From a virus (taxonomy: Duplodnaviria > Heunggongvirae > Uroviricota > Caudoviricetes), in IMG/VR virus record IMGVR_UViG_2534681737_000011: a DNA stretch of 35,827 bases. One strand, written 5' to 3'. The position numbers and the translations under genes were made by a program. The notes below the pieces were generated by a model, which was not told the origin of the DNA, ran no database searches, and was given only the letters and a program-made list of their open reading frames with translations. Below are positions 2,411-19,525 of the stretch, one piece after another (within the stretch, counting starts at the first letter, position 1; each line of letters opens with the position of its first letter).

Positions 2411-2413
2411 GAA

Positions 2414-3030: not shown

Positions 3031-3052
3031 ATGATCATGAAAGGTATTGGTT

Positions 3053-3081
3053 ATCCCTTCGGGATTGCAACCTTCGGTTGC
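3053..3081 (+). other. two tandem UUCG-tetraloop hairpins
   Basis: ATCCC-ttcg-GGAT immediately followed by GCAACC-ttcg-GGTTGC; no adjacent T-run, so not a classical terminator. Confidence 0.55.
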
Positions 3082-3175
3082 TAAATTTCTTCCTGATTAT
3101 TATTTCTTCAAAAGAAAGATTCTTATATTCTAAAGATACTTCTTCGTTTTGATGATGTTTTAATCAAATCTATGA

Positions 3176-3195
3176 AGGAGGGCTTTGCCCGACTG
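3176..3195. repeat. 20-bp element AGGAGGGCTTTGCCCGACTG (copy 2 of 2)
   Basis: Matches 2743-2762; the two copies bracket the CTAG-rich block. Confidence 0.7.
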
Positions 3196-3286
3196 AATAC
3201 CAATCCCTTCCAAAATCATCAAGAATTTTCTCTTATAAATAATATCAGAATTACTTTGATTCACTTTCTTTTAGAGGATTTCCATT

Positions 3287-3754
3287 ATGAACCATAAACT
3301 GACTACCACTACTCCTTTTATCCTTCTGGGTCTGGATGCAGATAGCTTTCACAATGACAAGTTAATGAAGATGTTCCGTGAACGTGGTTATAACATCCTT
3401 TACAATACCGATGAATCCCATTTCTCTAGTGCATGGTATGTTTTCGGAAGAAATAAACGTCCTACCATCGTTGTTAACTGCTTCACCGATGAAGACCGCC
3501 TGAAATACCAGAACATTCCAGCAATCATTGTTCGTGATGACCTGCCTTTCGAAGTCCGTGATTATGACATTGATTTAGGTAGCTTCGTTACTGTCTATGA
3601 ACTGGATGAAGCCATGTTTAACTACGGCAAAGAACCCGCTCAGGAAGCCCCAGAACACGATGAAGAAGATGAGGAAGACGAAGAATACGCGCCAATCTGT
3701 TTCTCTTCTCACGGTGGCTTCTACGGTTACGATGAAGGCTTAGATATGCTGTAA
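3287..3754 (+). CDS. strongly acidic hypothetical protein
   Basis: 155-aa ORF with GAGGA ribosome-binding site; Asp/Glu-rich throughout with a poly-acidic tract (EHDEEDEEDEE) near the C-terminus. Confidence 0.6.
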   Translation: MNHKLTTTTPFILLGLDADSFHNDKLMKMFRERGYNILYNTDESHFSSAWYVFGRNKRPTIVVNCFTDEDRLKYQNIPAIIVRDDLPFEVRDYDIDLGSFVTVYELDEAMFNYGKEPAQEAPEHDEEDEEDEEYAPICFSSHGGFYGYDEGLDML

Positions 3755-3789
3755 GTTAGGTCAACCCTTTGGCGTCTTGTCAAGGGGTA

Positions 3790-3818
3790 TTGACAAAATT
3801 TTCTGACTTTTTTATGAT
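3790..3818 (+). promoter_or_regulatory. sigma70-type promoter (-35 TTGACA, 17-bp spacer, -10 TATGAT) with operator-like TTGTCAA/TTGACAA palindrome
   Basis: TTGACA at 3790-3795, 17-nt spacer, TATGAT at 3813-3818; inverted repeat TTGTCAAggggtaTTGACAA overlaps the -35 and a third TTGACAA lies at 3827-3833; sits upstream of the 3875 gene. Confidence 0.6.
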
Positions 3819-3874
3819 TATCGCACTTGACAATTTTGAACCTATTTGACCTAGATTTGTAAAGAGGATGTAAC

Positions 3875-4207
3875 ATGAAAGAATTTACCATCACTAAATC
3901 CCTGTATGACTGGACTGTTAAAATCTCCGGCAAAACCGTTTCTGTAAGCCCTAGCCATGTAGAAAATGATTGGGGCGTATCCCGTGAAACAATCTCCCGT
4001 AGTATGCATGTTCCGTTTGATCTGATGTCCTTAACTGGTATTCATGCAATGCTGGAAGTTCGCGAACAATTCGAAGCTGGTAATCACAATGCGACTCCAG
4101 TTAGCAATCACCTTCTTACTAATGAAGAACGTGAAATCATCGAAAACTGGCGTTATGAATATGCGATTCCTTATTATGAAGAAGATCAGGTAGAAATCGA
4201 TTGGTAA
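3875..4207 (+). CDS. hypothetical protein
   Basis: 110-aa ORF with AGAGGA ribosome-binding site 6-7 nt upstream; double TAA stop. Confidence 0.6.
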   Translation: MKEFTITKSLYDWTVKISGKTVSVSPSHVENDWGVSRETISRSMHVPFDLMSLTGIHAMLEVREQFEAGNHNATPVSNHLLTNEEREIIENWRYEYAIPYYEEDQVEIDW

Positions 4208-4296
4208 TAAATTTCTATTATAAATAAAATTGTTCCGGTGGTGATGCCGGAACTAGGAGGACCAAATCATTAAACCGTTTAAGGGGAATTAATACT

Positions 4297-5109
4297 ATGA
4301 ATACTGTTACCGTTATGAATACTGCTAAAACTGCTTCCATGTCTCTGGTTGTTGATAACACCAAACCGCTGACCATGTCTTCCCGTCAGATCGCTGAATT
4401 TACCGGAAAAGAACATAAGCATGTTAAACGTGATATTAAAACTATGCTTACTTCTCTTGAATTAGATGAGTCCAAATTTGGACGCATCTTTTTTGACCAA
4501 TATGGACGTGAACAAACCGAATATCACCTTGACGAAGAACTTACGCTGACTCTTGTTACTGGTTACGATGTTAAGCGTCGAATGATTGTTATTCAGGAAT
4601 GGAAACGACTGAAAGAAGAAAATGAAAAACTGCGTCAGGAACGTTTAGCTGCTAACCCGTATGCAGACTTTGAAGAAACCGATTGGATCGAACTGGCATT
4701 AAAGAAAACTCGCGAAAATAAAAAGCTGATTGAACTTCATTATCGCAAATCCGTAGATAGCCATTCAATGACCCGTCTGTTAGGCGCTAAAAAGGGCGCT
4801 ACGAAGGTTAAAGAAGCACTGACGGCCTTGCGTACTGCTGGCTACATTGAGCGCGTCTACGATGAAAATAACAAGCCGTGTGGGTATGTTGCTAATGACT
4901 CTTCTCTGTCTTTCTGCCGCATGAATGCTCACTACCAACTTGAGTTTACTGTTGATGTGCTTCCGGTGCTGGTTGAATTGGGTGTTCTGGAAGAAGAACA
5001 AAAAGCAACTCTGAATCTTCCTAAGCCGAACAACACTATTCTGATTCAAAATAAAGCGGCTGAACGTCTCCGCCAGAATGTTGGATCACTGGAAGTCTTC
5101 GGACTGTAA
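4297..5109 (+). CDS. Rha-family phage regulatory protein (N-terminal Rha-like DNA-binding domain)
   Basis: N-terminal segment SSRQIAEFTGKEHKHVKRDI ... YGREQTEYHLDEELTLTLVTGY matches the Rha domain pattern as recalled from memory; ribosome-binding site AAGGGGAAT upstream. Confidence 0.65.
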   Translation: MNTVTVMNTAKTASMSLVVDNTKPLTMSSRQIAEFTGKEHKHVKRDIKTMLTSLELDESKFGRIFFDQYGREQTEYHLDEELTLTLVTGYDVKRRMIVIQEWKRLKEENEKLRQERLAANPYADFEETDWIELALKKTRENKKLIELHYRKSVDSHSMTRLLGAKKGATKVKEALTALRTAGYIERVYDENNKPCGYVANDSSLSFCRMNAHYQLEFTVDVLPVLVELGVLEEEQKATLNLPKPNNTILIQNKAAERLRQNVGSLEVFGL

Positions 5110-5117
5110 TAATTTTT

Positions 5118-5143
5118 AGCCTCGCCTAGTGCGGGGCTTTTTC
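5118..5143 (+). terminator. rho-independent terminator after the Rha-like gene
   Basis: AGCCtCGC-ctagt-GCGGgGCT hairpin followed by TTTTT. Confidence 0.6.
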
Positions 5144-5157
5144 ATGCCTACAGATAC

Positions 5158-5181
5158 AAAAAAGCCACTCCGAAGAGTGGC
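5158..5181 (-). terminator. rho-independent terminator for the minus-strand 5190..5423 gene
   Basis: GCCACTC-cgaa-GAGTGGC hairpin preceded on the plus strand by AAAAAA, which is a U-run on the minus strand. Confidence 0.55.
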
Positions 5182-5189
5182 AAAGAGAA

Positions 5190-5423
5190 TCAAAAACCTG
5201 TTGCTTCTACGATCTGACCATCACCGATCTGAACATAGAATTTAATGTCTAACTTCTTCATATTCTTATAGAATTGGGCGATTGAGATCCCATGTTCACT
5301 AAGAATCTGTTCTTTCGATTCCTTACCGCGATCCGCTGTATAGTAAGCGTAGGCAATATCAGCCATCTGTTCTTGAGTGAATCGGCAAGGGCGACCGCGA
5401 GTAGCTTTAGTAGTCATAGTCAT
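5190..5423 (-). CDS. small putative DNA-binding protein (GRP motif plus helix-turn-helix-like segment)
   Basis: N-terminal TRGRPCRFTQEQ followed by an HTH-like ILSEHGISIAQFYKNMKK; paralogous to 1716..1898. Start may be the second ATG at 5417, which has better GGAGA spacing. Confidence 0.55.
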   Translation of the reverse strand: MTMTTKATRGRPCRFTQEQMADIAYAYYTADRGKESKEQILSEHGISIAQFYKNMKKLDIKFYVQIGDGQIVEATGF

Positions 5424-5451
5424 TTCTCCAAATTAAAGTGAATGTTCACCT

Positions 5452-6054
5452 TTATTTAGAGGACTTACATTTTATAGGAAAAAGTTCTCCATCGTCAACC
5501 GACATAAAGAACTCTGCTTTGATCCCGTACTGCCTCAAGCGTGAATAGTATGTACCTCGACTTATATCAACCTTGCGAAGCACTTCAAAGAACCCTTTAG
5601 GATCGTTGTAATAGTGGCTATATCGCACGTTAGCGAGTTCAACGAATAGTTCCCTTGTATCACCATATCCTTTCTTAAAAGCCTCGTTACGATAGCGTGT
5701 AACAGCGTGATTTAGCCTTTCATGCTTAAACACTTCCCTTAGTGGCTTCCATTGCAACCGATAGATCGGACCATCGTCGATTCTGTAAAACCGCTTAATG
5801 TCAAAATCAAACCAATCTCGGACTCTCCGAAACTCTGTATGTGATGTTCTATGCTTCTTAAAGAAGTTGTGAACGTCTGTATAACCATTATCACGGTAAA
5901 ATTCTATTAAAATCTCTTTCGCTTCCTCACGGCTAAAACCAGAAGTGGTTATATCTGTTTTTAAATGCTTATGCTTAACTGGTAAACGATATTCATGATC
6001 GGTACAAGACAAGGCTAATTCTAATTCATCTCTTTGTTGCTGATTAATTAGCAT
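5452..6054 (-). CDS. hypothetical protein with C-terminal HTH-like motif (ISRGTYYSRLRQYG)
   Basis: 200-aa ORF with AGGAGG ribosome-binding site (plus-strand CCTCCT at 6059-6064); the C-terminal motif resembles resolvase or homing-endonuclease type HTH; no catalytic motif recognised. Confidence 0.5.
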   Translation of the reverse strand: MLINQQQRDELELALSCTDHEYRLPVKHKHLKTDITTSGFSREEAKEILIEFYRDNGYTDVHNFFKKHRTSHTEFRRVRDWFDFDIKRFYRIDDGPIYRLQWKPLREVFKHERLNHAVTRYRNEAFKKGYGDTRELFVELANVRYSHYYNDPKGFFEVLRKVDISRGTYYSRLRQYGIKAEFFMSVDDGELFPIKCKSSK

Positions 6055-6141
6055 ACAACCTCCTTAAATCTTAATACCCGTATTTATTAAAAAATCAACA
6101 ATTTACTAAATACTCTCATATTTCGTAATGAGGGTAATTAC

Positions 6142-8049
6142 ATGAAACTGATTTCTAATAAGGCAAAATTAAAAAAGATTCTCAGAAATGCAGCCAAATA
6201 TATTACGCCACCTCCTAAACTCCTTCCGTCTGAATGGTGCGAAGCGAATATGGTGCTGGTAGATGGTCCTCAAGCGGGGGATAAAGTTAAATTGTTGTCA
6301 TTCCAAAAAGGCATGATTGATGCACCTTTCCTTGAGAACAAGAAAAAGTATGTCCTGATGACCAGTGCGCAGATCGGAAAAACTACCATCTTGAACGGCA
6401 TCCTGTTTAACCAGATGGCTAACGATCCATGCAATATGATTATCGGACAATCAACCGCTAAAGAAATGTCTCAATATCTCGCGGGTAAGATCCGACCGTC
6501 TATCGAAGCATGTGATGCATTAAAAGACGTGGTTACAGACAAGAATGATCGTAATGCGGTTAACAACAATAACCAACTCCAGCTAAAAACGAATCACTTC
6601 CTGTACATGGTATCGCTTACCAGTCCATCAACCCTACGTGGTAAGACCGCAAAGGTTGGATTGCTTGACGAAATCGATGCTGCTACAGCCTCAGAAGAAG
6701 GTGATCCGGTGGCACTGGCTGCTAACCGTTTAACTACTTTTGGAGATGAGGGTCGATTAGTCGTATCCAGTACCCCGACCAGTAAGCTGGGAAGCATTAA
6801 CCAGCAATGGTTATCAAGCGATATGCGTATGTTTTTTGTTCCGTGTCCTCATTGCGGTAGACACCAGGTGATCGAGTGGGAAAACGTTCAATTTGAATGG
6901 CGTAACATCGATGGTAAGAACTTACCCGATCCTGATACCGCTCGTTATATTTGCCCTCACTGTAAGCAATCATGGACAGAAGGGGAACGAATCAGGGCAG
7001 TAGCGCAAGGCGAGTGGAGAGCAACCCGTGAAAGTGAAGTAGCAGGATTCTGGATCAGTCGTCTATATTCACCTTTCAGCACGATCCGCGCTTGTGTGGT
7101 TGATTTTAGTCATGCGTGGCAATCCTTTGATTTACAATCATTTTATAACACCGTATTAGGTAAGGTGTACGACGATCAGGACACGGCAGTAGAAGCAAAT
7201 GAACTGGAACAACTCAAAACAGATGTTTCTATCGAGAATATCCCAGATGACGTGATTTTCTTGTGCTCAGGAATTGACCAACAATTAGACCGCGCAGAAT
7301 CTACCATCTTAGGCGTAGCGAAAGATAAGGTTTACATTCTGGATCACCGCAGCTTTTACGATCATAACTGTGAACGATATGAATCACCTGTTTGGGATCG
7401 TCTGGTTAACTTCAAGAAAACCAAATTCTATAACGTTAATGGTGAACGTGTGCCAATGCTCGCCAGTTTCCTTGATACATCGAACGGTCGATTCACTCAA
7501 GCCGGATACCGTATTTGCGGCAAGTGGAAGAACCTACACGCGATCAAAGGTAGTTCGTCTGGTAATGCTCCAGTGATTCCGGTTAAACCTACCCGCACAG
7601 GTGGTCATGAATTGCTTATGCTGGGTGTTAACGTTGGGAAATCCGCTGTTCGTGAAATGTTGGTTAGAAACCTGAAAGACAATCCTCACATCGGCTTAGA
7701 AATATCAGAAACCGTTCCTGATGATTATCTCGATCAGCTTTTGAGTGAATCCATCAAGCGTACTACTACTGGCGTGCGTTGGGTGAAAAATCCAGGTAGT
7801 ACCCGAAACGAGGCTCTCGACTGTCTGGTTTATAGCTATGCTGCTTCTCGCTACGTTCTTTCAAAAATGTCATGGGATAAACTCATTGCAATGAAAGACA
7901 GCTTAAACCGTGTTGTCGAAGAATCCGTAGAAGCTCCTAAAACGCAATCTGACGAGCAAATCGAAGAAACTAAGCCAATCACACGACCACAACGTCAAAA
8001 CATCGCCAGACGCCCAAATAGAGGCCGTAGCTGGGTAACATCGTTCTAA
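6142..8049 (+). CDS. terminase large subunit, lambda GpA-like
   Basis: Walker A (SAQIGKTT) and Walker B (VGLLDEID) motifs; C-terminal region with CPHCG ... CPHC metal-binding motifs typical of GpA-type terminases; lies directly upstream of the portal gene. Confidence 0.85.
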
Positions 8050-8055
8050 TAACTC

Positions 8056-8074
8056 GCCGTCCTTCGGGGCGGCT
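8056..8074 (+). other. UUCG-loop hairpin after the terminase gene
   Basis: GCCGTCC-ttcg-GGGCGGC; only a weak U-tract follows, so termination is uncertain. Confidence 0.4.
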
Positions 8075-8121
8075 TACTCCTAAATATTGTTAATCCAATA
8101 ACAATTAAATAAGGGGTAATT

Positions 8122-8616
8122 ATGAGTTTAGAACTAATTCCCTTAGTAATTCGTAAAGGCGAAAAAGTCACGCTGGCGAATGAAGAGGGTGTAACAATTC
8201 AGGTAGGAAATAGTAAAGGTATCATTTATCAGGTTGATGATACTCCGGCTAATCATGAGATTAAAACTCTCTCGTTCGAGATAGGTAAATATACCATCGT
8301 AATAACTTTGGAAGAAGAACTGGTATCAATGCAGGAATTAACTGTATTGCCAGTCTTTGCCAAACAATCCAAAAAAGAATATCTGCGGGAAACTATCGCC
8401 TTAATCGAGCAAGTTATTTTCGCCCGTTTATCTGGGGACGAAGCCGCATTATCTGCAATGACAATAAAAGGGAACTCATTCGCCTATGAGTCATTGGGTG
8501 TTCTCCAGCAATTGAAGACTGATTATGAACGTCAGTTATCTAAATTAATTCAAGCCGAACGACGTAAGCAGGGAATTAGCCCGATTAAAAATATCAAATT
8601 ACGTCTTACGCGATAA
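8122..8616 (+). CDS. hypothetical protein between terminase and portal
   Basis: 164-aa ORF with AAGGGGTAAT ribosome-binding motif; function not recognisable. Confidence 0.55.
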   Translation: MSLELIPLVIRKGEKVTLANEEGVTIQVGNSKGIIYQVDDTPANHEIKTLSFEIGKYTIVITLEEELVSMQELTVLPVFAKQSKKEYLRETIALIEQVIFARLSGDEAALSAMTIKGNSFAYESLGVLQQLKTDYERQLSKLIQAERRKQGISPIKNIKLRLTR

Positions 8617-8626
8617 GGGGTAAATC

Positions 8627-10138
8627 ATGTTTAATCTTTTTCGACGCAATAAGGCGGTAGAAACTCCAGTTAAAACTAATCACCGCCAGCAACAACCAAA
8701 AATTTTCATCGATAAGCAAGTAGAAAAATTCCAGAAAGACCTATCTAAACGAAGTTTAGGTCTGGTTGGTGATCGCATTGATGGATCGCTTCAACAAGAC
8801 ACCATTACCGGAACCTTCAATAAGGCTCTCAAATCGAACGGTAAGCGCCTTTATGATCAGGGTCGTACTCTGGCTATAAACAATGCTGTAGGCAAGCGAT
8901 ACAAGCAGTATATCGTTGACCAAGTTGTTGGTACGGGGCTTGATCCGAAACCATCAATCGTTAAATCAAATGGCAAACTTGACACCGCACTGAATAAGCA
9001 GATCGAGAATGCTTTCTGGAAGTGGGCGCAGAGTGCTAAACGCTTCTCTCGCAACGGTCGCTTTAACTTCCGTGAAATGCTGGCAATGGCAGAATCTGAA
9101 CGTGTTCAGGGTGGAGAATGCTTCATCGTTTTAACCAAAGAGAACAATGAGTTACAAGTTTCTATTCTGTCTGCTGATAGGTGCGACTGGTCGCTTAGTC
9201 GTGAAATAAGCAAAGAACGTGCGATCTATCAGGGGATTGAGTATGACGTAGACACAATGCGCCCTGTAGCATACTGGTTTAGAAAAATCAATCTACTGAC
9301 TCAGACCTACACTGGCGAAAATTATCGCGTAGATGCTTCTCAGGTGTGCCACTACTACCAGCCACTGTGCGCGGAAAGTTTACGTGGTGTGACTGACTTC
9401 CTGCCAGTGATTAAGGATATTGCGCATCAAGAAGCGTTCCGCGAAACCGCGATCGTCCAGAAACGTATTGCAGCTAGCTCTATGGGCTTTATTGAACGTC
9501 CGAAAGATTCTGGTGACGATTTTGATACTGGTGAAGAGGATGAACAATATCAAGCGCCGGAAGTAGTACAGGACTTTGCACCGGGTACTATTCAGGAATT
9601 GCCGGAAGGGGCAACGATCAAGAGCATCCAGGCGACGCAAAGCGGTGATGATTTCAATTCCTTCAATGATGCGATGTTTACTAGCGTATCAATGGGCTTA
9701 GGCGTGTTCAAACAGGGCTTAACAGGAGATTGTTCACAGATCAACTACTCAGCCGCACGTTTTGGGGAACTAACCCAGCGTAACCGCATTAAAGCACTGC
9801 AAAACAAATTGATTGAAACAGTGGTATTGCCAATTTTTGAAGCATATCTACGCCATTATTCCGCGCGTGGTATTGTTCCGATTCGTATTACTGCAATTCC
9901 GCATATTATCGATAATACAACTATTATTCGTCCGCGTTTTGAATCCGTCGATCCTATTAAAGACGTAAACGCCGAGATTGCTTTAATTCAAAATGGTCTT
10001 AAATCACGTACTGCCGTTATATTGGAACGTGGTGATGATCCTGAAAAAGTATTCTCAGAGATTCAAGCCGAAAAGAGCGCACTAAATATTATCGTTAATG
10101 GCGAGGGTGAAGAAAAAAATTCCCCAGCCGATCCCTAA
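8627..10138 (+). CDS. portal protein (lambda-like)
   Basis: 503-aa ORF immediately after the terminase region and before the protease-capsid gene; size and position fit a portal; acidic C-terminal tail. Call rests mainly on synteny. Confidence 0.7.
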   Translation: MFNLFRRNKAVETPVKTNHRQQQPKIFIDKQVEKFQKDLSKRSLGLVGDRIDGSLQQDTITGTFNKALKSNGKRLYDQGRTLAINNAVGKRYKQYIVDQVVGTGLDPKPSIVKSNGKLDTALNKQIENAFWKWAQSAKRFSRNGRFNFREMLAMAESERVQGGECFIVLTKENNELQVSILSADRCDWSLSREISKERAIYQGIEYDVDTMRPVAYWFRKINLLTQTYTGENYRVDASQVCHYYQPLCAESLRGVTDFLPVIKDIAHQEAFRETAIVQKRIAASSMGFIERPKDSGDDFDTGEEDEQYQAPEVVQDFAPGTIQELPEGATIKSIQATQSGDDFNSFNDAMFTSVSMGLGVFKQGLTGDCSQINYSAARFGELTQRNRIKALQNKLIETVVLPIFEAYLRHYSARGIVPIRITAIPHIIDNTTIIRPRFESVDPIKDVNAEIALIQNGLKSRTAVILERGDDPEKVFSEIQAEKSALNIIVNGEGEEKNSPADP

Positions 10139-10183
10139 TAACCAACGGGGGCGCAATGCCCCCAATTAATTAAAGGTGATTAA

Positions 10184-12190
10184 ATGCTTAAATTTCGCCG
10201 CGATCTTAACGGTTACGGTGGAGTTATTAACGAAGGGCATAACGATCAATACGAATTTGAAATTGCTTTCTCCAGTGAACAGCCGTATCAGCGCCAATTC
10301 TGGGATGAGCAAAATCAAGAGATGGTGGTACTAGATGAAATTCTGGTACATACACCGGAAGCGGTTGATCTGTCTCGTCTGAATAATAACGCTCCGTTGC
10401 TGTTCAATCATAATTTCGATAATCACATTGGTGTCGTTTGTAACGCTCGAATCGATGCGGATAACGTAGGCCGTGCTCTGGTTAAATTCTCTAAGCATGG
10501 CACTTTGGCTAATGATATTCGCAATAAAGTCATTGAAGGTACGATGGAAAAAATTTCTGTCGGTTATGACATTAAAGAATATCACATCGACTACACCAAA
10601 GGACAATTGATTGTTACTAAGTGGGCACCCTATGAACTCTCATTTGTCACCGTTCCCGCAGACGATACGGTCGGTTTAAATCGCTCTCTAAATACTATCA
10701 CAGTTAATTTGGAGGCTAAACGCGATATGACTAAAGAACAAATCGAAGAAATCAAAGAAGAACAAGAAGCCGCTCAGGTTGAAGAAACTCCGGTAGAAGA
10801 AAATAAAGAATCGGAAGTTGAAGAAACTCAAGAGCGCCAAGTTGAAGAGAATAAAGAAAATGAAAATCTCGAAGACGGAAAAGACGCTGAACATCCTGAA
10901 AGTGTTGATGATGATAGTTCAACTGTTCGGGAAGAAGAAGAAGTAAAAGAAGAACGTGAAGCCGCTCCGGTTGAAGAAGAAAAAATTGAAGTGGCTGAAC
11001 GTTCCGAAGAAGACGAATTAGAAATTCGCGAAATTGCACGCGAACTAAATATTAACGAAGACGATGAAGAATTTAAACGCGCATTGACAAATAAAGAAAT
11101 TACGCCGGAAGCATTCCGCACTAAGGCACTAAATAATCTCGTCAATGCTCAACGTAATAACGAACAAATTAATAAGGAACAAATCATGGAAAAAACTTTC
11201 GATCTTAATAACGTAATCCGCTCCCTGGTAGATGGCGACGTGCTCGGCGCTAACGAAGCTGAATATTCCGCTATGGCTGCTACTGCAACTATGCAGCGTG
11301 GTCGTGCTGCTCGTGGTGGCTCTGTATTCGTTCCGGCTGCTGCTATGCGTGCTGCTGCTGCTGGTAACACCAAAGCTGACCTGACTGCTATCACCGACGA
11401 AAAACTGCTGACTGAATCCTACATCGAAATGCTGATGCCGGAATCCGTTCTGGGTCGTCTGGGTGTGACTGTTTACAGTGGCTTGACTGCTCCGACCGCT
11501 ATTCCAAAAATGACTAAATCCAGCGTTGACGCTTTCGGCTTCGTTGATGAAAACGGTGCTGCACCGGAAGGCAAAGCTGAATTTGCAAACGTGAAACTGT
11601 CTCCTAAGACTTTTGCTGGTGGCAACCCGATCAGCCGTCAGAGCATTAAAACCGTTCCGGGTATCGCTACCCTGATCACTGATCACATCAACCAGGCTGT
11701 TCGCATCAAACTGGAACAACTGATTCTGTCTGACAAAGACAATGAGCGCGGTCCTGCTGGTCTGGTTAAACAACTGGTTGATGCAAGCCGTGTTACTAAG
11801 AAAGCCGCTTTCAGCTACAAAGACTTCCTGAAAGAAATTGCAGCACTGACCGACGCTGGCGTTCCTGCTCAGGCGATCAAGTTTGCGATGAGCGGTGCAA
11901 CTGCTGCTGAACTGGAATCTACCCTGAAAGATAACGGTGTTTCCGGTTATATCATCGAAAACGGCAAACTGGCTGGTTACGATGTAGTTACTTCTGGTGT
12001 TATCCCGGCAGATCACATCGTTCTGGGTGACTTCTCCGGTATTACTATCGGTGAGTGGGGCGGTCTGGAACTGGATATGGACGACACCACCTACCGTGCA
12101 CAGTCCGCTATCGTTCCGCGTATCTGGGTAGATCTGGACTATGTTGTAACCCAGCCGGAAGCTCTGAAAGTTCTTCACATCTCCGAATGA
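10184..12190 (+). CDS. fused prohead protease / acidic scaffold-like linker / HK97-fold major capsid protein
   Basis: N-terminal about 170 aa match the HK97-type prohead protease pattern (LLFNHNFDNHIG ... SVGYDI ... ELSFVTVPADD); Glu-rich low-complexity segment at about 10730-11070; C-terminal about 330 aa capsid-like. Ends in TGA-A. Confidence 0.75.
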   Translation: MLKFRRDLNGYGGVINEGHNDQYEFEIAFSSEQPYQRQFWDEQNQEMVVLDEILVHTPEAVDLSRLNNNAPLLFNHNFDNHIGVVCNARIDADNVGRALVKFSKHGTLANDIRNKVIEGTMEKISVGYDIKEYHIDYTKGQLIVTKWAPYELSFVTVPADDTVGLNRSLNTITVNLEAKRDMTKEQIEEIKEEQEAAQVEETPVEENKESEVEETQERQVEENKENENLEDGKDAEHPESVDDDSSTVREEEEVKEEREAAPVEEEKIEVAERSEEDELEIREIARELNINEDDEEFKRALTNKEITPEAFRTKALNNLVNAQRNNEQINKEQIMEKTFDLNNVIRSLVDGDVLGANEAEYSAMAATATMQRGRAARGGSVFVPAAAMRAAAAGNTKADLTAITDEKLLTESYIEMLMPESVLGRLGVTVYSGLTAPTAIPKMTKSSVDAFGFVDENGAAPEGKAEFANVKLSPKTFAGGNPISRQSIKTVPGIATLITDHINQAVRIKLEQLILSDKDNERGPAGLVKQLVDASRVTKKAAFSYKDFLKEIAALTDAGVPAQAIKFAMSGATAAELESTLKDNGVSGYIIENGKLAGYDVVTSGVIPADHIVLGDFSGITIGEWGGLELDMDDTTYRAQSAIVPRIWVDLDYVVTQPEALKVLHISE

Positions 12191-12325
12191 ACTAGCGTAG
12201 AACCTTCTGTACCTTCCCCCGATTTGGGGGAAGAAAATCTGATTCCATCTCAGGAAGAAGAATCCCAGACGGTTACGGCGAAAGCCACAGCTAAAAAGGT
12301 GGGACGTCCACCGAAAGCAAAATAA
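12191..12325 (+). other. stop-free in-frame extension after the capsid TGA (44 codons, ends ...TVTAKATAKKVGRPPKAK)
   Basis: Translated directly: TSVEPSVPSPDLGEENLIPSQEEESQTVTAKATAKKVGRPPKAK then TAA; same frame as the capsid gene; contains the 24-nt block at 12272-12295 that is identical to 18186-18209. Confidence 0.5.
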
Positions 12326-12330
12326 TAATT

Positions 12331-12357
12331 AGCCCTGCCTAACGGTGGGGCTTTTTT
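12331..12357 (+). terminator. rho-independent terminator after the capsid gene and its extension
   Basis: AGCCCTGCC-taac-GGTGGGGCT (two G-U wobble pairs) followed by TTTTTT; near-identical to the terminator at 18239-18267. Confidence 0.7.
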
Positions 12358-12387
12358 GTATGTAAATACTCCATAAAGGGGGTAACT

Positions 12388-12678
12388 ATGTTCAAATTAT
12401 CAGAATCACAATTATCAAGAATGTTTAAGAGTGCTCCTGTATTTGTGGTGGAAGGTGGTAAATCAATTCGTGCTTATCATGAAATTACTACTACCGACGA
12501 ATCAGGTGTAATGACAGAAACCGAATTTCTATTCTGTCGTGAGGGAGACTTAAAGCAAGGTGATATTGTCACAGTAGAAAACCAGCGTTTCAAAGTTCAA
12601 TACGTTAAGCGCAATGGTGACAATACTTGTGATTGCTTTATCACTTTAGCAGGGGGTACACATGCTCGCTACCGTTAA
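12388..12678 (+). CDS. small virion or head-tail joining protein candidate
   Basis: 96-aa ORF with AAGGGGGTAACT ribosome-binding motif, immediately downstream of the capsid gene; function inferred from position only. Confidence 0.5.
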   Translation: MFKLSESQLSRMFKSAPVFVVEGGKSIRAYHEITTTDESGVMTETEFLFCREGDLKQGDIVTVENQRFKVQYVKRNGDNTCDCFITLAGGTHARYR

Positions 12679-13084
12679 TAATATGCCGAGACTGAAAATC
12701 AAACGCGCCTTGCAAGATATTATCGAACAAGATTTAGGTCTGGCTTTAAACGTAGAACAAACTCAGCAAGGCTTTAGTGATGACGTGGTTTGTTGGATCA
12801 CCGGAATGAATGAGACTTACACTAGGGTCCGTGGTGGTAATGCAATGCAAGCTGAATGCGTTATCGAAATGCAATTATATTCTCAGATTCATGAAACCAA
12901 AATTCATGAGGGTATTTGCCAGATAATCCAGATTCAGCCGGATAACCCACGTTTTAAAGATTTGGGCTTCTCTATTTCAGATATCACTCCAGTAGCCTCT
13001 AATACCGATTATGACGCTGATTCTAGTGATGGGGGTATCGTTGGGACACTTAGTCTTAAATTTTCTTATCTAGCGCGTTTTTAA
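12662..13084 (+). CDS. small virion or head-tail joining protein candidate
   Basis: 140-aa ORF overlapping the previous gene by 17 nt with a GGGGGT ribosome-binding site; position suggests a connector or completion protein. Confidence 0.5.
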   Translation: MLATVNNMPRLKIKRALQDIIEQDLGLALNVEQTQQGFSDDVVCWITGMNETYTRVRGGNAMQAECVIEMQLYSQIHETKIHEGICQIIQIQPDNPRFKDLGFSISDITPVASNTDYDADSSDGGIVGTLSLKFSYLARF

Positions 13085-13093
13085 GGGGTAATA

Positions 13094-13927
13094 ATGAATA
13101 TTACACAAGATAACTTAGATATTTTCACTGGATCACATGTTGAAGTGTCGATCTCTAACCAGATAGACAATCAGGTCGACTTTTTCGATCCTAGCTTTAG
13201 TTCTATGGAGAACATCGCAGCATTCCCTACGCTAACCGAATCCACAGAGATAGAAACTCTGGAAGAGTACGATCAGGACGCTACGGGGAAACTTGCTGGT
13301 TATCGTAGACTGGAACCGACGACACTCACATTAAACCGTGTTCTTGACGATGAACATCAAGCAATGTTGATGAAAGCGGTAGAGGATAAAACACCTTTAC
13401 GCTTCCGTATGTTCTATGTTGTGAACTCTGGCTATAGTGCTGCTAACACTGGTTACTATGTCATCTATGATGCTTATGTCACTAGCCATAAAACACGAGG
13501 CGGTGATAACAAAGCTGTAACTATGGAATTCAAACTTGAACCAGATGGCGGGATTCTTGCAAGGGGTATAGCGACCGAGGGAAAACTCATCCGACAAGGG
13601 GATTTTGGCGTAGGCTCAGGCGTTAGCCCATTCACCGGACCTATTGATAGTGAATCTCTGACAGGAAACCGCTTTGTAACCTACAAAGGAACGGCTAGCA
13701 CTAACCCTTATGGTGCTGATACATCGTTAATTCATCTTCAAGCTAATGAGCATGGCGCATGGCAATTAACGTGTAATACTTCCGGTGCTCCACGTTTGCG
13801 GGTACGAAATATTCAGGACAACGGAAAATCGGAATGGATTAAAGTCTATACAACAAACGAGAAGCCTACGCCAGCCGAAATTAATGCGGTTGCTAAGACT
13901 GATAGAATCGACTTCGGGGAATACTGA
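13094..13927 (+). CDS. putative virion structural protein (unassigned)
   Basis: 277-aa ORF with AAGGGGTAAT motif; ends in TGA-T followed three codons later by TAA. Confidence 0.5.
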   Translation: MNITQDNLDIFTGSHVEVSISNQIDNQVDFFDPSFSSMENIAAFPTLTESTEIETLEEYDQDATGKLAGYRRLEPTTLTLNRVLDDEHQAMLMKAVEDKTPLRFRMFYVVNSGYSAANTGYYVIYDAYVTSHKTRGGDNKAVTMEFKLEPDGGILARGIATEGKLIRQGDFGVGSGVSPFTGPIDSESLTGNRFVTYKGTASTNPYGADTSLIHLQANEHGAWQLTCNTSGAPRLRVRNIQDNGKSEWIKVYTTNEKPTPAEINAVAKTDRIDFGEY

Positions 13928-14001: not shown

Positions 14002-17000
14002 ATGGAGTCTATCCAATTTAAACGCACACAGACGGCTGGTAAAAAGCCAACGCCAGAACAACTGGCACAGGGTGAGGTAGCAATTAACCTTGCCGACCAC
14101 GTAATTTACACCAAAGACAAAAATAACGCAGTAGTTCAAATCAGCGTTTCCCCAGAAAGTCATAATGCTTTAAACACGAAAGTAGACAATAACAAGAAAA
14201 CTACTGATTCTACTATCGCGGCAAATAAAACCGAAGCTGCTAACGCTCTGGCTACCGCTAAATCTGAACTGAATAACACTATTAACACGAAAGATACAGC
14301 GACCAATAAGCGCATTGATGCTACTAACACCACTGTTAGTAACTTAACCCAGACAGTCACGGCAAATAAAACCGACGCTGACACCAAGATCAATAACCTT
14401 ACGGGGACAGTTGCGGCAAACAAATCAGCTATTGAAACTACCGTAGCGAATAACAAACGAGACGCGGACAATAAAATCTCAGCTTTAACCACTACGGTTA
14501 ATGACAACAACACCGCGATCAATAGCCGTGTTGATACCACTAACACCAATGTTAGCAATCTGACCAAAACCGTTACAGCTAACAAGTCTGATGCTGATTC
14601 CAAGATCTCCAGCTTAACGAGTACCGTTGCAGCTAACAAATCAGCCATTGAAACTACGGTAGCGAACAATAAACGCGATGCTGATACGAAGATCACCAAC
14701 TTAACCAACACTGTTAATAGCAACCATACCGCCATTAACAACAAGGTTGACCAGAATAAAACCAGCACAGATGCAGCGATTGCAGCCGCTAACAAGCGAA
14801 TTGATGGTATTGAAGGTAGCAACGATGCTCTTTACATCAAGAAGAACACAAATACCTATCATCACGGCTATCTGTTAACCAAAACAGCTAACTATTTTGA
14901 TGATGCTGGTGCTCGTAACCTTGATTATTTTGGTGCGTTTCGTCCGAACAATGCCGAAGGTTGGGGTAACTTAATCCTTAACATTCCTCATTCTGGCGGT
15001 AAAGCACACGGTCGCGGCTTTGAGTTCCATTATGGGTCTAGCTCATCTCAGGTTAAAACCTATGGCTTTGATAAGGACGGTAACAAGAGATTCAGCTATC
15101 GCATGTACCATGAAGGTGATAAGCCGACTCCTGATGAATTGGGTGTGTATAGTAAAGCCGAAGTTGATCAGATGTTCATCAAGAACGTTAGAATGACCGT
15201 TCCTTCTGGTGATGCTACTCGTGGATACTTCAAGATCGCAACCGCTACGATCCCACAGAATGGTCGAATGGTAATGCTTCGTATCTTCGGTGGTAATGGT
15301 TATAACGTTAACTCTTATGATCAGGTTGACTTTGTAGAAATTGTCATCCGTTCCGGTAACAATAACCCGAAAGGCGTTAGTATTGCTGCTTATCGTCGAA
15401 ATGCTCTGAACGTTCATCAAGTATTTGCGGTTAATACTTCCGGTGATAACTACGATATCTACGTTAACTACGGTCGTTACACCGATAACGTTATTGTCGA
15501 ATACGGTAAAACTGATGGCGTTACTCTGACAGTACATGATGTTCCTGAATTAACTCTCGTTAAACCTTCTGTTGGTGTTACCGATGCTCGTGTTATTACG
15601 ATGTTCAACACCGAAAACAAAGCCGGAACGTTGATGTTTGATAATAACGGTCAAGGAACGTATGATATTATCAGTCTGAATAACTCAACTGATACAAATA
15701 AAAAATATCTTCGTAAATTCCGTAGCAAATCAGCCGAAACAATTTGGCATGAAGTTGTTGAAGGTAGTGTCTATCGTTTAGCTACTGGTGTTACTGATAC
15801 AGCGGATCAATTAAAAATTGATTTTAATGGTGTTACTGTAAACCGCCTTTTTGTTAAGGGTAATAACGCTATTAGAATGGAACGCCGCGACGGGCAAAGT
15901 AACTATATCGAATTCTTTGATTATCGTTCTGGTGCTAATCGTCGTCAGGGTTATCTAGGTTATGGTGATGGTACTACTAACACTGTACAGTTAGTAAATG
16001 AATTAACGGAAGGTAATAACTCTGTAAGACTGGATGAGAACGGTCAAGTTTCATTATCCACTGGCAAAACAAAAATTGTGTACACAAACGGCGAATATGT
16101 TGCTGCATACGCTAACGCATTCCGTATGATTTACGGTAACTACGGTGCATTCTGGCGTAATGATGGTGGTAAAGTTTATCTTCTTTCAACTGCCGAAAAT
16201 GATAAATTTGGTGGCTGGAACGGCAACCGACCATTCATTTACGATTTGACTACTGGTAAAGTTACTTTAGGTGGTGATGGTAACGAGGGTGCATTAGTTC
16301 TCGAACGAGATAGCCGTGCTGCTCGATTTGCTGGTGATATTTACGTCGGTAAAGGAATGTTAACCTTTGATGCTGGTCGATTAAATTCTCGCGACTACTT
16401 CCGGTTTAACCATTGGGGCGATAGCAATAACGCTCGTGATAATATCTTACAGCTTGACGATAGCAAAGGTGCACACTTCACCACTGAACGTACTTTAGCA
16501 ACTGGTGCGATTAAAACTAAATTCTTCGGTGATTTAGAAGCTGCTGGACAAATTCGCTGGGGTAAAGGTACTGCAACTTCTACGTTTAATATTCGTGCAT
16601 GGGGCGCTGATGCTCGTAAACAAGTGTTTGAATGTGCTGATGAAAGCGGTTGGCACTGGTATACCCAACGTGCTGGCGGTCCTGGTACTGAATTAATCGA
16701 GTTTGCTATTAACGGTACTGTTAAGCCTAAAGCAATCCACACTGGAGGCAATATCACCCTGAATGGTGCTGATATTGAGTTTAAGCGCACTGGTAACAAG
16801 CATTTATGGTTTAGAGATCCAAACGGCTTAGAGTTGGGTCTGTTGTACTGCGATGATGCTGGTGTTATGCGTATGCGCGGTGAGAAACAAGCCGAAGTCT
16901 GGAAATTCGGCGGTAAGATGATTCACCTTGAAACGGGCACTGTATCCGGTGGCGGTAATGGTCTTATTCGTGGTAGCGTTGCTGGTGGTAGTTGGGCTAG

Positions 17001-17589
17001 CTGGCGTGATCGTGCTTCCGGTATTCAGGTCGACTGCCAGCAATCAACCGATTCCGCTCATAACATCTGGAAAGCAACCCATCAAGGTAAATATCATATC
17101 GCCGCAATGGGTGTACACGTTCCTAGCGGTACTATCGGTAACGCTCTTGTTCGTCTCCATGTTCATGATGCCGTCTTTGACTTTAACGCATCCGGTGACA
17201 TGACGGCAGGTCGTAACGGTAGCTTTAACGATGTTTACATTCGCTCTGACTCTCGTCTGAAAATTAACAAGGAAGAATTACAGGACGGTGCATTAGAGAA
17301 AGTAAACTCCCTGAAAGTATACACCTACGATAAAGTTAAATCTCTTTCTGATGACACGGTAATTAAACGCGAAGTAGGTATTATTGCTCAGGATCTGGAA
17401 AAAGTATTGCCGGAAGCAGTAGGTATTCAATCTACCGAAGATCCAGAACATCCAGAAGCAATCAAGACTATTTCTAACTCTGCTGTCAATGCTTTAATCA
17501 TCAAGGCTATGCAGGAAATGGATGCTAAGTATCAAGCTAAGATTGATGCACTGACTAAAGAATTAGCCGAACTCAAAGCAACTAAATAA
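14002..17589 (+). CDS. long tail fibre protein with C-terminal S74-type intramolecular chaperone domain
   Basis: 1195-aa ORF with GAGGTGA ribosome-binding site; N-terminal repetitive T/N/K/A-rich region with two tandem units of about 72 aa; C-terminal SDSRLK motif followed by a coiled-coil tail, as in self-cleaving fibre and tailspike chaperone domains. Confidence 0.8.
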   Translation: MESIQFKRTQTAGKKPTPEQLAQGEVAINLADHVIYTKDKNNAVVQISVSPESHNALNTKVDNNKKTTDSTIAANKTEAANALATAKSELNNTINTKDTATNKRIDATNTTVSNLTQTVTANKTDADTKINNLTGTVAANKSAIETTVANNKRDADNKISALTTTVNDNNTAINSRVDTTNTNVSNLTKTVTANKSDADSKISSLTSTVAANKSAIETTVANNKRDADTKITNLTNTVNSNHTAINNKVDQNKTSTDAAIAAANKRIDGIEGSNDALYIKKNTNTYHHGYLLTKTANYFDDAGARNLDYFGAFRPNNAEGWGNLILNIPHSGGKAHGRGFEFHYGSSSSQVKTYGFDKDGNKRFSYRMYHEGDKPTPDELGVYSKAEVDQMFIKNVRMTVPSGDATRGYFKIATATIPQNGRMVMLRIFGGNGYNVNSYDQVDFVEIVIRSGNNNPKGVSIAAYRRNALNVHQVFAVNTSGDNYDIYVNYGRYTDNVIVEYGKTDGVTLTVHDVPELTLVKPSVGVTDARVITMFNTENKAGTLMFDNNGQGTYDIISLNNSTDTNKKYLRKFRSKSAETIWHEVVEGSVYRLATGVTDTADQLKIDFNGVTVNRLFVKGNNAIRMERRDGQSNYIEFFDYRSGANRRQGYLGYGDGTTNTVQLVNELTEGNNSVRLDENGQVSLSTGKTKIVYTNGEYVAAYANAFRMIYGNYGAFWRNDGGKVYLLSTAENDKFGGWNGNRPFIYDLTTGKVTLGGDGNEGALVLERDSRAARFAGDIYVGKGMLTFDAGRLNSRDYFRFNHWGDSNNARDNILQLDDSKGAHFTTERTLATGAIKTKFFGDLEAAGQIRWGKGTATSTFNIRAWGADARKQVFECADESGWHWYTQRAGGPGTELIEFAINGTVKPKAIHTGGNITLNGADIEFKRTGNKHLWFRDPNGLELGLLYCDDAGVMRMRGEKQAEVWKFGGKMIHLETGTVSGGGNGLIRGSVAGGSWASWRDRASGIQVDCQQSTDSAHNIWKATHQGKYHIAAMGVHVPSGTIGNALVRLHVHDAVFDFNASGDMTAGRNGSFNDVYIRSDSRLKINKEELQDGALEKVNSLKVYTYDKVKSLSDDTVIKREVGIIAQDLEKVLPEAVGIQSTEDPEHPEAIKTISNSAVNALIIKAMQEMDAKYQAKIDALTKELAELKATK
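14320..14750 (+). repeat. two tandem copies of an about 216-bp coding repeat inside the tail fibre gene
   Basis: Protein units IDATNTTVSNLTQTVTANKTDADTKINNLTGTVAANKSAIETTVANNKRDADNKISALTTTVNDNNTAINSRVD and TTNTNVSNLTKTVTANKSDADSKISSLTSTVAANKSAIETTVANNKRDADTKITNLTNTVNSNHTAINNKVD; also visible at nucleotide level. Confidence 0.75.
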
Positions 17590-17645: not shown

Positions 17646-18122
17646 ATGTCTCAACAATTCAAAGATATTTTTACTGGTGGTCTGGTAAGTATGTTCTATC
17701 AAGCGGACACTACTAATGCCGATCTCTCGGCAGAAAGCTACGAAGAAATTAAAGAGTGTGCTGGTTTTCCTGAAACTGGTATCGAACGCGGTACTGTAGA
17801 AGTTAAATCCTTCTCTTCTCAGTATAACCGTAAACTGGTAGGGAAACTGAACGTTCCTGATCTGACTCTGACCGTTAACTACATCCCAGGTGATGCGGTA
17901 CACGCTAAACTGGATAAGGCAGCCGAAGATGGCACGCGTATTCAGATTAAGATTGAATATTATGTTGATGCTGGTAAGCAGACTGGTATTCGCACCGCTT
18001 TCAACGGCTTTATCTCTAAAGCGGCTATGCAGGGTGGCGATGAAGAAGTCGTAACTAAAGAATATACCTTTGCTGTTGATGGTGCTCCGATCAAACAGGA
18101 AGTGTTTACCGCTGGTGGTTGA
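17646..18122 (+). CDS. major tail (tube) protein, gpV-like
   Basis: 158-aa ORF with AAGGGGTAAT motif; segments (ADLSAESYEE ... GFISKA) recall the lambda gpV N-domain; lies directly upstream of the chaperone pair and tape measure gene. Ends in TGA-A. Confidence 0.6.
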   Translation: MSQQFKDIFTGGLVSMFYQADTTNADLSAESYEEIKECAGFPETGIERGTVEVKSFSSQYNRKLVGKLNVPDLTLTVNYIPGDAVHAKLDKAAEDGTRIQIKIEYYVDAGKQTGIRTAFNGFISKAAMQGGDEEVVTKEYTFAVDGAPIKQEVFTAGG

Positions 18123-18233
18123 ACTTTCGAAGAACAACCCCAGCCAATTCAAGATGAACCTACGGTGATTCCTGAAATTGAGGTTGTTACGGCGAAAGCC
18201 ACAGCTAAACGAAGCCGCAAGGCTAAAGATTAA
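18123..18233 (+). other. stop-free in-frame extension after the major tail TGA (36 codons, ends ...VVTAKATAKRSRKAKD)
   Basis: Translated directly: TFEEQPQPIQDEPTVIPEIEVVTAKATAKRSRKAKD then TAA; same frame as the tail gene; contains the 24-nt block at 18186-18209 identical to 12272-12295. Confidence 0.5.
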
Positions 18234-18833: not shown

Positions 18834-19142
18834 ATGAATCTGAATGAAATGCTGAAAGCTCTTTCTCCGAAACGTGAATCTTTAACCCTCGGAGGATTTA
18901 CGTTCTATGCTCGCCCTATGTCGGTACAAGAATTTAATGAACATGTTTTCAATACTGATAAAAAAGACCGTGATGAACGCTCTATTCTTCGTTGTATTGA
19001 AGATGAAGACGGTAAGCCAGTATTTGAATCTATTGAACAAGTTAAGGCATTGTATACTAGCGTCCGCAGCGAATTAATCGGCTTAGTTGCTCAAGCATCA
19101 TTGATGAAAGATGCGGCGGTAATTGAAAACGAGGTAAAGTAA
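18834..19142 (+). CDS. tail assembly chaperone (gpG-like position)
   Basis: 102-aa ORF with GAGGAA ribosome-binding site, directly upstream of a -1 frame ORF and the tape measure gene. Confidence 0.6.
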   Translation: MNLNEMLKALSPKRESLTLGGFTFYARPMSVQEFNEHVFNTDKKDRDERSILRCIEDEDGKPVFESIEQVKALYTSVRSELIGLVAQASLMKDAAVIENEVK

Positions 19143-19150: not shown

Positions 19151-19525
19151 TTGAATTTTTATTTTCGGCAAATGATGCGTCGGGGCTTGAGTAAAGATGA
19201 GATGGATAATATGCCAATTACGCTATTTTGGGCGTTGCATATATTCGATACATATCTTGAACCACAAAGCCCCCTGTTTCAAGATGCGCGACATGCACAG
19301 TCGATGTATTACATGCACGTTACATCTCCTAACATGACTCGTGAATGGTTGAATAAAATCAATGTTAACCAATTCCGAATGATTAAGGACGACAAGCAAT
19401 TTAAAACGCAAGAAGAAATAAAAGAAATTGCTCGTAAGAAAGAGGAAGAACGTAACGCTGCTTTGGTTGATAGTTTTTTCGACGCTTCATTATTACAAAA
19501 GCTCAAGAGCGGACAATTGGGGTAA
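19151..19525 (+). CDS. tail assembly chaperone, gpT-like frame (possibly expressed by -1 frameshift from 18834..19142)
   Basis: ORF in the -1 frame relative to the upstream chaperone, open from 19127; no convincing ribosome-binding site or ATG at its 5-prime end; in the same frame as the tape measure gene, separated from it by one TAA and one codon. Confidence 0.45.
   Translation: MNFYFRQMMRRGLSKDEMDNMPITLFWALHIFDTYLEPQSPLFQDARHAQSMYYMHVTSPNMTREWLNKINVNQFRMIKDDKQFKTQEEIKEIARKKEEERNAALVDSFFDASLLQKLKSGQLG

Follow-up and report, generated by a model that had tools for sequence, protein, structure and literature searches.

Does translation of the major capsid gene of a tailed phage always end at its stop codon, or is this stop passed by a small part of the ribosomes, which then add a C-terminal peptide to a minor fraction of subunits? 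The question is raised by a stretch of 35,827 nucleotides (nt) from the IMG/VR virus record IMGVR_UViG_2534681737_000011 (Caudoviricetes), referred to here as the window, which is a temperate siphovirus-like E. coli prophage with a capsid gene terminated by UGA followed by A and continued by 44 stop-free codons in the same frame. Comparison with related loci, together with a parallel arrangement behind the major tail gene, makes it probable that programmed low-level readthrough of UGA-A yields a few extended subunits of both the head and the tail. This reading is built on nucleotide sequence and its variation among relatives, and its competitors are weighed below.

The capsid stop codon and the open frame behind it

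The elements composing the 3′ end of the capsid gene are located as follows.

10184-12190, plus strand: fusion gene of prohead protease (S78), acidic scaffold-like linker and HK97-fold major capsid protein, 668 amino acids, ending TCC GAA TGA (12188-12190)
12188-12191, plus strand: candidate leaky stop, UGA then A; TGA and A at position +4 are invariant in 57/57 capsid loci; 3 of the window's 33 open reading frames (ORFs) end with TGA
12191-12322, plus strand: candidate in-frame readthrough extension, 44 codons, TSVEPSVPSPDLGEENLIPSQEEESQTVTAKATAKKVGRPPKAK; stop-free, with 32 nucleotide alleles, none of them interrupted
12323-12328, plus strand: tandem stop TAA TAA after the extension; TAATAA in 54 of 57 loci, TGATAA in 3
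12331-12357, plus strand: intrinsic terminator of the capsid transcript, stem 12331-12352 and U run to 12357, -15.1 kcal/mol

The product of the fusion gene is matched by the Pfam families Peptidase_S78 (PF04586) and Phage_capsid (PF05065) and by phrog_617, the major head protein of the PHROGs collection, and its closest solved structure is the capsid of roseophage R4C (8GTA, E-value 1e-24). The peptide encoded behind the stop has an acidic spacer rich in Pro and Ser (TSVEPSVPSPDLGEENLIPSQEEESQTV) and, after it, a basic tip rich in Lys and Ala (TAKATAKKVGRPPKAK). Census of stops in the 33 candidate ORFs of the window gave 29 TAA, one TAG and three TGA, and TAATAA, which is the usual strong gene ending of this phage, closes seven ORFs of the plus strand; two of the three TGA-ending genes code for the major capsid and the major tail proteins. 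Thus the earlier note on this DNA, which was made from its letters alone, was accurate as to the ending of the capsid gene with TGA and A, the 44 in-frame codons preceding TAA and a terminator, the prevalence of TAA, often doubled, and the recurrence of the same arrangement at the major tail gene (17646-18122).

If taken from a single sequence, the capsid extension is not significant, because a stop-free run of 44 codons after a stop has an estimated chance of ~6% at the base composition of the window, and in-frame runs of 25-42 codons are also present in intergenic DNA behind other stops of the window; the significance comes from comparison with relatives. Before the capsid stop there is no slippery run (GTT CTT CAC ATC TCC GAA TGA), therefore frameshifting is not an option at this place. 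The only candidate start within the extension of the window, TTG 12224, is not preceded by a Shine-Dalgarno sequence and is enclosed in an 8-bp GC hairpin. No Pfam match was obtained for the peptide of 44 residues, and tblastn against phages gave no match either. Among 5.8 billion predicted proteins it occurs once, as a stand-alone gene call of 33 residues (P0049), with 0 cases of its fusion to the capsid protein through a sense codon, and none of the extensions is called in the annotation made by the Prokaryotic Genome Annotation Pipeline (PGAP).

Conservation of the frame in related capsid loci

Altogether 57 capsid loci were compared, one from the window, 20 from RefSeq chromosomes and 36 from IMG/VR contigs; these contain 32 distinct alleles of the extension. 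The earlier note had proposed conservation in related phages as a check, and its outcome was clearly positive. While the stop and the adjacent A never change, the last sense codon (GAA, GAC, GAG or GAT) and the bases from +5 to +9 vary among the same loci. Frame 0 is open in all 32 alleles, and frames +1 and +2 carry stops in every one of them. Extensions of 27, 28, 33, 42, 43, 44 and 45 codons (81, 84, 99, 126, 129, 132 and 135 nt) are found, so that all changes in length are multiples of three; in the ~60 nt separating TAATAA from the next gene, indels of 1 or 2 nt occur. The capsid and tail extensions (the latter described in the next section) have together undergone at least eight indel events, all in frame (chance ~1.5e-4), and at least 65 (capsid) and 36 (tail) substitutions without emergence of a stop (chance ~0.06 and 0.20), these figures overstating independence, since the alleles are related and recombining, with the direction of evidence clear all the same. 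The change from TGA to TAA requires a single transition, yet it is absent from all 57 capsid and 25 tail loci, and the strong tandem stop sits at the end of the extension rather than directly after TGA.

Conservation of the frame starts at the first codon 3′ of TGA. Since the alleles of loci L020, L067 and L068 are devoid of in-frame ATG, GTG or TTG before the last few codons (the last nine in L020), with the equivalent of TTG 12224 being TCG in L067 and L068, the extension would be translatable only by ribosomes arriving from the capsid ORF. Alternative alleles of the C-terminal part of the capsid extension, having unrelated nucleotide sequences, encode VGRPPKAK, QRKTKE, ERKTKAK or GRKPKE, all of them basic. 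The ratio of nonsynonymous to synonymous polymorphism (pN/pS) in the capsid extension is 0.68 for frame 0 versus 0.93 and 0.84 for the shifted frames, the upstream genes having values of 0.19-0.30.

Four loci, L066-L069, provide a separate line of evidence. Their capsid proteins are only ~39% identical to that of the window and end with ...TVVQKKVD, yet behind these genes stand the same TGA-A and, in frame, a homologous extension. Homology with the window thus starts at the stop codon, and the cassette travels with the downstream block, having been attached, with the frame kept, to a capsid gene of very different sequence.

Loci L054 and L070 were left out of the counts because of a frame break inside the capsid gene; in both of these IMG/VR contigs the match has a length not divisible by three, with an early stop in the frame scanned, and they may be pseudogenes or products of sequencing errors. 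Scanning of species-representative genomes returned only four distant beta- and gammaproteobacterial capsids having no bearing on readthrough.

The second copy behind the major tail gene

A similar set of elements is situated at the 3′ end of the gene for the major tail protein.

17646-18122, plus strand: major tail (tube) protein gene, 158 amino acids, phrog_158 (E-value 9e-22), ending GGT GGT TGA (18120-18122) then A
18123-18230, plus strand: second candidate in-frame extension, 36 codons, TFEEQPQPIQDEPTVIPEIEVVTAKATAKRSRKAKD; open in each of the 15 alleles, which have 36, 39 or 41 codons
18231-18267, plus strand: TAA TTA TAA and then a terminator nearly identical to that of the capsid transcript, -16.6 kcal/mol, z-score (z) = -4.5

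TGA-A and the open in-frame extension were found in 25/25 tail loci comprising these 15 alleles, with lengths of 108, 117 and 123 nt. The encoded peptide is homologous to that of the capsid gene (...VVTAKATAKRSRKAKD), and the two extensions have a common nucleotide block, GTTACGGCGAAAGCCACAGCTAAA. Their design is common as well, comprising about seven acidic residues in a Pro-rich spacer, followed by about six basic residues in a tip of TAKATAK type. The pN/pS ratio of the tail extension is 0.42 in frame 0 versus 0.93 and 1.37 in the shifted frames, and thus for both genes the lowest value belongs to frame 0.

Two proteins of the window possess the N-terminal domain of phrog_158, one encoded at 17646-18122 and the other at 13094-13927. 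The latter gene, whose product has 277 amino acids in the window and 699 in phage DCP80 (see below), precedes the gene of a 1195-residue fibre with S74 peptidase domain (14002-17589), and this pair, consisting of a first tube-like gene and the fibre gene, has the head-completion genes on one side and the real tube gene on the other. As a candidate for the parallel major tail gene, 13094-13927 was ruled out, for it ends with TGA T and only three codons remain before TAA.

Predicted RNA structure downstream of the stops

RNA transcribed from the extensions is predicted to be structured. For 12188-12330, a fold of -45.1 kcal/mol was obtained with z = -4.0 versus shuffled sequences, and the extension RNA is characterized by z of -4.0 for the capsid allele of the window, -5.3 for a short capsid allele, and -2.9 and -2.7 for tail alleles. 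Two hairpins may be distinguished in the extension of the window.

12213-12233, plus strand: hairpin 1, CUUCCCCC-GAUUU-GGGGGAAG, 22 nt after UGA; among 15 long alleles the stem is invariant and the loop varies
12238-12261, plus strand: hairpin 2, UCU..UUCC-6 nt loop-GGAA..AGA; the stems are invariant, and the loop is ATCTCA, TGAACC, TAAACC or ACCACA

The short alleles are deprived of hairpin 1 and carry instead AAUUGCCGGAA-GAAA-UUCCGGUAGUU, an 11-bp hairpin situated 10 nt after UGA. RNAalifold applied to the 15 long alleles detected 0 pairs with compensatory change, and scanning against Rfam at a permissive E-value returned nothing except sub-threshold noise. A small hairpin, GGTGG-ACGTC-CCACC (12298-12312, encoding VGRPP), is converted into GGCGG...CCGCC (AGRPP) in L024 and L027; this single compensatory double change is the only hint of covariation in the extension. 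The structured RNA located directly 3′ of the stop may raise the rate of its readthrough.

Basic tails in the wider capsid family

In more distant relatives the capsid 3′ end is organized differently. In a Salmonella relative (53% identity) the capsid protein ends with ...KAPAGRSK and TAA, with a terminator directly behind and without any extension. In the clade having 40-45% identity, composed of phage DCP80 and E. coli prophages, some of the capsid proteins have a short Lys/Ala tail encoded in frame at their end (...EKGTPAEAKAAKQ, ...GTPAEVKAALKASA and ...GEAEAGETRKAK), while in others an early TAA follows an A-run and a Lys/Ala-rich peptide devoid of start codon is found thereafter in the -1 frame. 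The tail gene of DCP80, when checked for a similar extension, revealed none.

Candidate -1-frame capsid tails, each behind an A-run and an early TAA: L001, 7775-7881; L056 and L061, ~2475-2537; L060, 2475-2561; L063, 2460-2561; L164-L166

The A-run has several variants. In L063, GAA AAA AAG, containing the A_AAA_AAG heptamer of dnaX type, is followed by KKDGSLTDTGAQAAPVRKPRALKVTK in the -1 frame, and in L056, GAA AAA C precedes RKAKAKAKAKAETAE in the same relative frame. L164 and DCP80 have GAA AAG before the early TAA, L061 has a run of eight A, and GTA AAA A is also encountered in this clade, the -1 tail being often laid over a hairpin. Among L060, L063 and L164 the -1 peptide shows conservation of its amino acids. 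By these signs the capsid 3′ end of the DCP80-like clade looks like a site of unannotated -1 frameshifting or slippage. More generally, a basic Lys/Ala C-terminal tail looks like a trait of the family, with longer versions apparently gained via recoding, namely by -1 shift in one lineage and by UGA readthrough in that of the window. A second IMG/VR scan, performed with a profile of the DCP80 clade, brought no new members of the clade.

The record of Escherichia phage DCP80 (L001, PQ671644.1) is filed as Straboviridae/Gaprivervirus with a genome of 141 kb; its region 1-13765 is a lambda-like siphovirus module with terminase, portal and protease-capsid genes, and the record may be chimeric or mis-assigned.

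Proposed course of readthrough and its products

If the probable readthrough takes place, most ribosomes would terminate at 12188-12190 and give the normal capsid protein, while a small fraction would place an amino acid at UGA (most probably Trp, carried by the near-cognate tRNA-Trp), go on for another 44 codons and terminate at TAA TAA. This would give a capsid subunit supplied with a flexible acidic spacer and a Lys/Arg/Ala-rich C-terminal tip, and upon Trp insertion the stop-spanning peptide is predicted as VLHISE-W-TSVEPSVPSPDLGEENLIPSQEEESQTVTAK. The same event at the tail stop (18120-18122) would add 36 more codons, giving QEVFTAGG[W]TFEEQPQPIQDEPTVIPEIEVVTAK, and a few head and a few tail-tube subunits of each virion would carry the same kind of tag. 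As to the yield, a UGA reporter is read through by Trp-tRNA at the level of 2-4% in E. coli K-12 (PMC10570021), and UGAA is bound weakly by release factor 2 (RF2) (PMC5373646). The capsid of R4C is made of 415 copies (PMC10276861), the genome of this phage (36 kb) being similar in size to the window prophage. With ~2% readthrough and 415 copies as in R4C, one might expect ~8 extended subunits per head.

By analogy, the tag is presumed to be displayed on the outside of the virion, because C-termini are external in T7 10B display and in HK97-fold encapsulins, as are the C-terminal domains of siphovirus tail tubes. The tail as an internal DNA-binding arm was set aside for the same reason, as the C-termini of HK97-fold shells and siphovirus tubes are external in known systems. 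Since an acidic spacer is combined with a basic tip, the function might speculatively be weak electrostatic adhesion to anionic surfaces such as lipopolysaccharide, capsule or DNA, which resembles the role proposed for immunoglobulin (Ig)-like domains added by frameshifting. The likeness to AT-hooks suggested in the earlier note did not hold for the whole set of alleles, as GRP or RGRK occurs only in some of them (KKVGRPPKAK, KRGRKPKE) and neither in KKQRKTKE and KKERKTKAK nor in RSRKAKD of the tail, and no Pfam match accompanies it.

Evaluation of alternative explanations

Several points weigh against readthrough and should be considered together. The constraint on amino acids is weak, as follows from the pN/pS ratio of the capsid extension, and its variable columns are distributed over the codon positions as 11/15/15, without excess at the third one; such weak constraint fits a disordered linker, in which composition outweighs sequence, though this is not a proof. 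The extension belongs to a low-diversity block shared by recombination (pS of about 0.2 versus 0.46 at the capsid 3′ end), therefore the alleles are not independent and the block is possibly young. The predicted hairpins, placed at a distance of 10-22 nt from the stop, vary from allele to allele and from one gene to the other, with no covariation. The Salmonella relative and the tail gene of DCP80 have no extension, therefore the tag is dispensable for assembly. Finally, two forms of RF2 have to be distinguished, with Thr246 in K-12 and Ala246 in the B type. When RF2 was of the B type, which is usual in wild E. coli, products of native UGA readthrough at nudL and pheL could not be detected (PMC5373646), therefore a useful yield in wild hosts may need a stimulator; in this regard the basal level taken from K-12 may be much lower in wild E. 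coli possessing more active RF2 (PMC5373646).

The same observations may be read in other ways. The conserved segment might be a structured 3′ untranslated RNA element (a stabiliser of mRNA, a processing site or a small RNA derived from the 3′ untranslated region), present in two copies behind the late genes of highest expression, so that the open frame is incidental. This agrees with the low z values of capsid and tail alleles, with invariant stems and variable loops of the hairpins, with the compensatory change of GGTGG/CCACC to GGCGG/CCGCC, and with the nucleotide block and the terminator common to both copies. An RNA element nevertheless leaves unexplained why all indels are multiples of three, why frame 0 alone is open in 47 alleles and why TGA never becomes TAA, as well as the presence of in-frame copies behind two unrelated genes and the basic residues encoded by unrelated 3′ allele sequences. 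The structures themselves are conserved neither between long and short alleles nor between the capsid and tail genes, the long-allele set contains no covarying pair, no Rfam family comes near threshold, and the structure is in any case compatible with readthrough, as it could serve as a stimulator; we consider this explanation unlikely. Rather unlikely, too, is a fossil, that is an ancestral longer C-terminus cut by a nonsense mutation, with downstream codons not yet decayed and readthrough being harmless noise. Weak constraint on the peptide and spreading of the low-diversity block by recombination would be expected in such a case, and relatives with in-frame Lys/Ala tails make an ancestor with a constitutive tail plausible. 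Against this, the nonsense mutation and the open frame would need to arise and persist in two different genes, through at least 8 in-frame indels and at least 101 substitutions without a stop and without change of TGA to TAA; no relative has a sense codon at the position of the stop, and a useless leaky stop predicts back-up stops nearby, while the tandem stop sits 27-45 codons later.

A separate small gene, translated by internal initiation (e.g. from TTG 12224, giving a peptide of 33 amino acids) or by termination-reinitiation, finds a counterpart in the ORF list of the window (12224-12325) and in the database entry P0049, which is a call of this kind. Such a gene would be devoid of an upstream Shine-Dalgarno sequence, with its TTG hidden in the 8-bp GC hairpin, lost in L067 and L068 and not replaced in L020 by any in-frame ATG, GTG or TTG before the last nine codons, and conservation of the frame begins already at the first codon after TGA; this renders it very improbable. 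Specific decoding of UGA, either as selenocysteine via a selenocysteine insertion sequence (SECIS) hairpin, by a phage suppressor tRNA or through reassignment of the stop codon, is hardly conceivable here. A hairpin is indeed present 3′ of UGA, but its sequence, loop and distance (10 versus 22 nt) differ among alleles, that form is absent at the tail gene, and Rfam gave no match; no suppressor tRNA is reported by ARAGORN, whose one call, a doubtful tRNA-Gln, falls inside an ORF, and the genes are intact under the standard code (code 11), with TGA present only at the ends of three ORFs. Programmed low-level readthrough of UGA-A thus remains the reading that we regard as probable.

Genomic surroundings

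Apart from the genes discussed above, the window encodes a large terminase of lambda type, a portal protein, a serine integrase, an Ant-like regulator and tail fibres. The region was found in 54 of 5426 complete E. coli genomes (about 1%), with E. coli Z0117EC0005 (NZ_CP098223, 98.6% identity) among the carriers, and in many IMG/VR contigs, and megablast gave no match to it at the DNA level in phage or plasmid collections. The capsid terminator is invariant across the loci except for loop indels of 1-2 nt, and the gene after it, which has a Shine-Dalgarno sequence of its own, begins at 12388.

Between its protease and capsid parts, the fusion gene has a linker (window 10700-11180) that is extremely acidic and repetitive (EEIKEEQEAAQVEETPVEENKESEVEETQ...). 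Numerous database proteins of this gene are labelled “partial” and have odd lengths, suggesting breakage of assemblies or gene calls at the linker. ARAGORN reported a tRNA-Gln(ttg) of 91 nt at 12849-12939 on the minus strand, inside ORF 12662-13084, and this is probably a false positive. The gene of the tail assembly chaperone (18834-19142) ends with GTA AAG TAA (19134-19142), and the following ORF (19151-19525) is shifted to -1, which represents the canonical G/GT frameshift of tail chaperones, with the A_AAG site adjoining the stop.

Comparison with known recoding systems

Tailed phages known to make minor extended forms of capsid or tail proteins always do so by frameshifting, while for readthrough the known examples come from RNA phages. 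Neither the comprehensive recoding review of 2016 nor literature searches, whose coverage is incomplete, gave an instance of readthrough in a tailed-phage structural gene, so that this is absence of evidence only. In a wider and tentative version, which we hold to be possible but doubtful, the loci described here would represent the first natural programmed readthrough in a tailed double-stranded DNA (dsDNA) phage, based on a portable cassette (UGA-A, structured RNA and a peptide with acidic spacer and basic tip) that is placed behind the head and tail-tube genes, swapped by recombination between unrelated capsid genes, and replaced in sister lineages by -1 frameshifting or constitutive encoding. 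Since readthrough depends on RF2 activity, the level of tRNA-Trp, temperature and cyclic AMP, the number of tags per virion would then report the physiological state of the producer cell and give graded surface properties to virions.

If readthrough at these stops is true, it joins the recoding repertoire of tailed dsDNA phages, gene callers miss a part of the virion proteome, and a coliphage acquires natural low-copy display sites on its head and tail. The same kind of tail, being constitutive, produced by -1 frameshift or produced by readthrough, would offer a natural series for comparison when the reasons for selection of low occupancy are sought. With the prophage present in about 1% of complete E. 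coli genomes, experimental material is easy to obtain.

Among the described classes, the frameshift one (T7 10B, Cps and Tsh of PSA, A2) does not fit the window, which has no slippery site and keeps the extension in frame 0, while features of the -1 type were found in the DCP80-like relatives. The Ig-like decoration domain (~80-100 amino acids) is not matched either by an extension of 27-45 amino acids with low complexity and no Pfam match, and the case of the window also does not belong to the SECIS, reassignment or AT-hook class. Stable RNA structure ~8-10 nt after the stop is typical of gag-pol of murine leukaemia virus and of plant viruses (PMC5009743), and the 11-bp hairpin of the short allele is positioned similarly, at 10 nt; these systems are, however, eukaryotic and use pseudoknots or long-range pairings, whereas the candidate stimulators of the window vary between alleles. 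In nudL and pheL of E. coli, as supposed here, UGA (UGAA at pheL) is read by a near-cognate tRNA without SECIS (PMC5373646, PMC10570021), but their readthrough is treated as incidental, vanishes with B-type RF2 and has no reported conserved design of the extension.

Closer in its logic is the coat/A1 pair of Qbeta, where the UGA closing the major coat gene is decoded at low frequency as Trp, and a few subunits with extended C-termini result. The context of the Qbeta stop is also UGA then A. A1 constitutes about 1 in 15 coat proteins, or about 12 copies per capsid, and its extension begins with a proline-rich spacer (PMC8067240). At the same time, Qbeta is a single-stranded RNA phage with an unrelated coat fold and a folded extension of 196 amino acids that is essential for infection, while the window represents a tailed dsDNA prophage with a low-complexity peptide of 27-45 amino acids attached to two structural proteins and dispensable in relatives. 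Phages T7 and T3 with their 10A/10B proteins are similar to the window in having the HK97-fold capsid of a coliphage in two forms produced from one gene, the minor of which carries a recoded C-terminal extension (PMC5009743); they differ in the use of -1 frameshift at a slippery site and in an unrelated sequence of the extension, which is Ig-like in T3. Recoding at the 3′ ends of both capsid and tail genes is described for Listeria phages PSA, A118 and A500 (Cps and Tsh) and for Lactobacillus phage A2 (PMC5009743), and these are the closest analogue of the head-plus-tail pairing, although they infect Gram-positive hosts, exploit +1 or -1 frameshifting (CCC_UGA and similar) and add longer, often Ig-like, extensions, whereas in the coliphage analysed here the same pairing would be achieved by in-frame readthrough of UGA-A.

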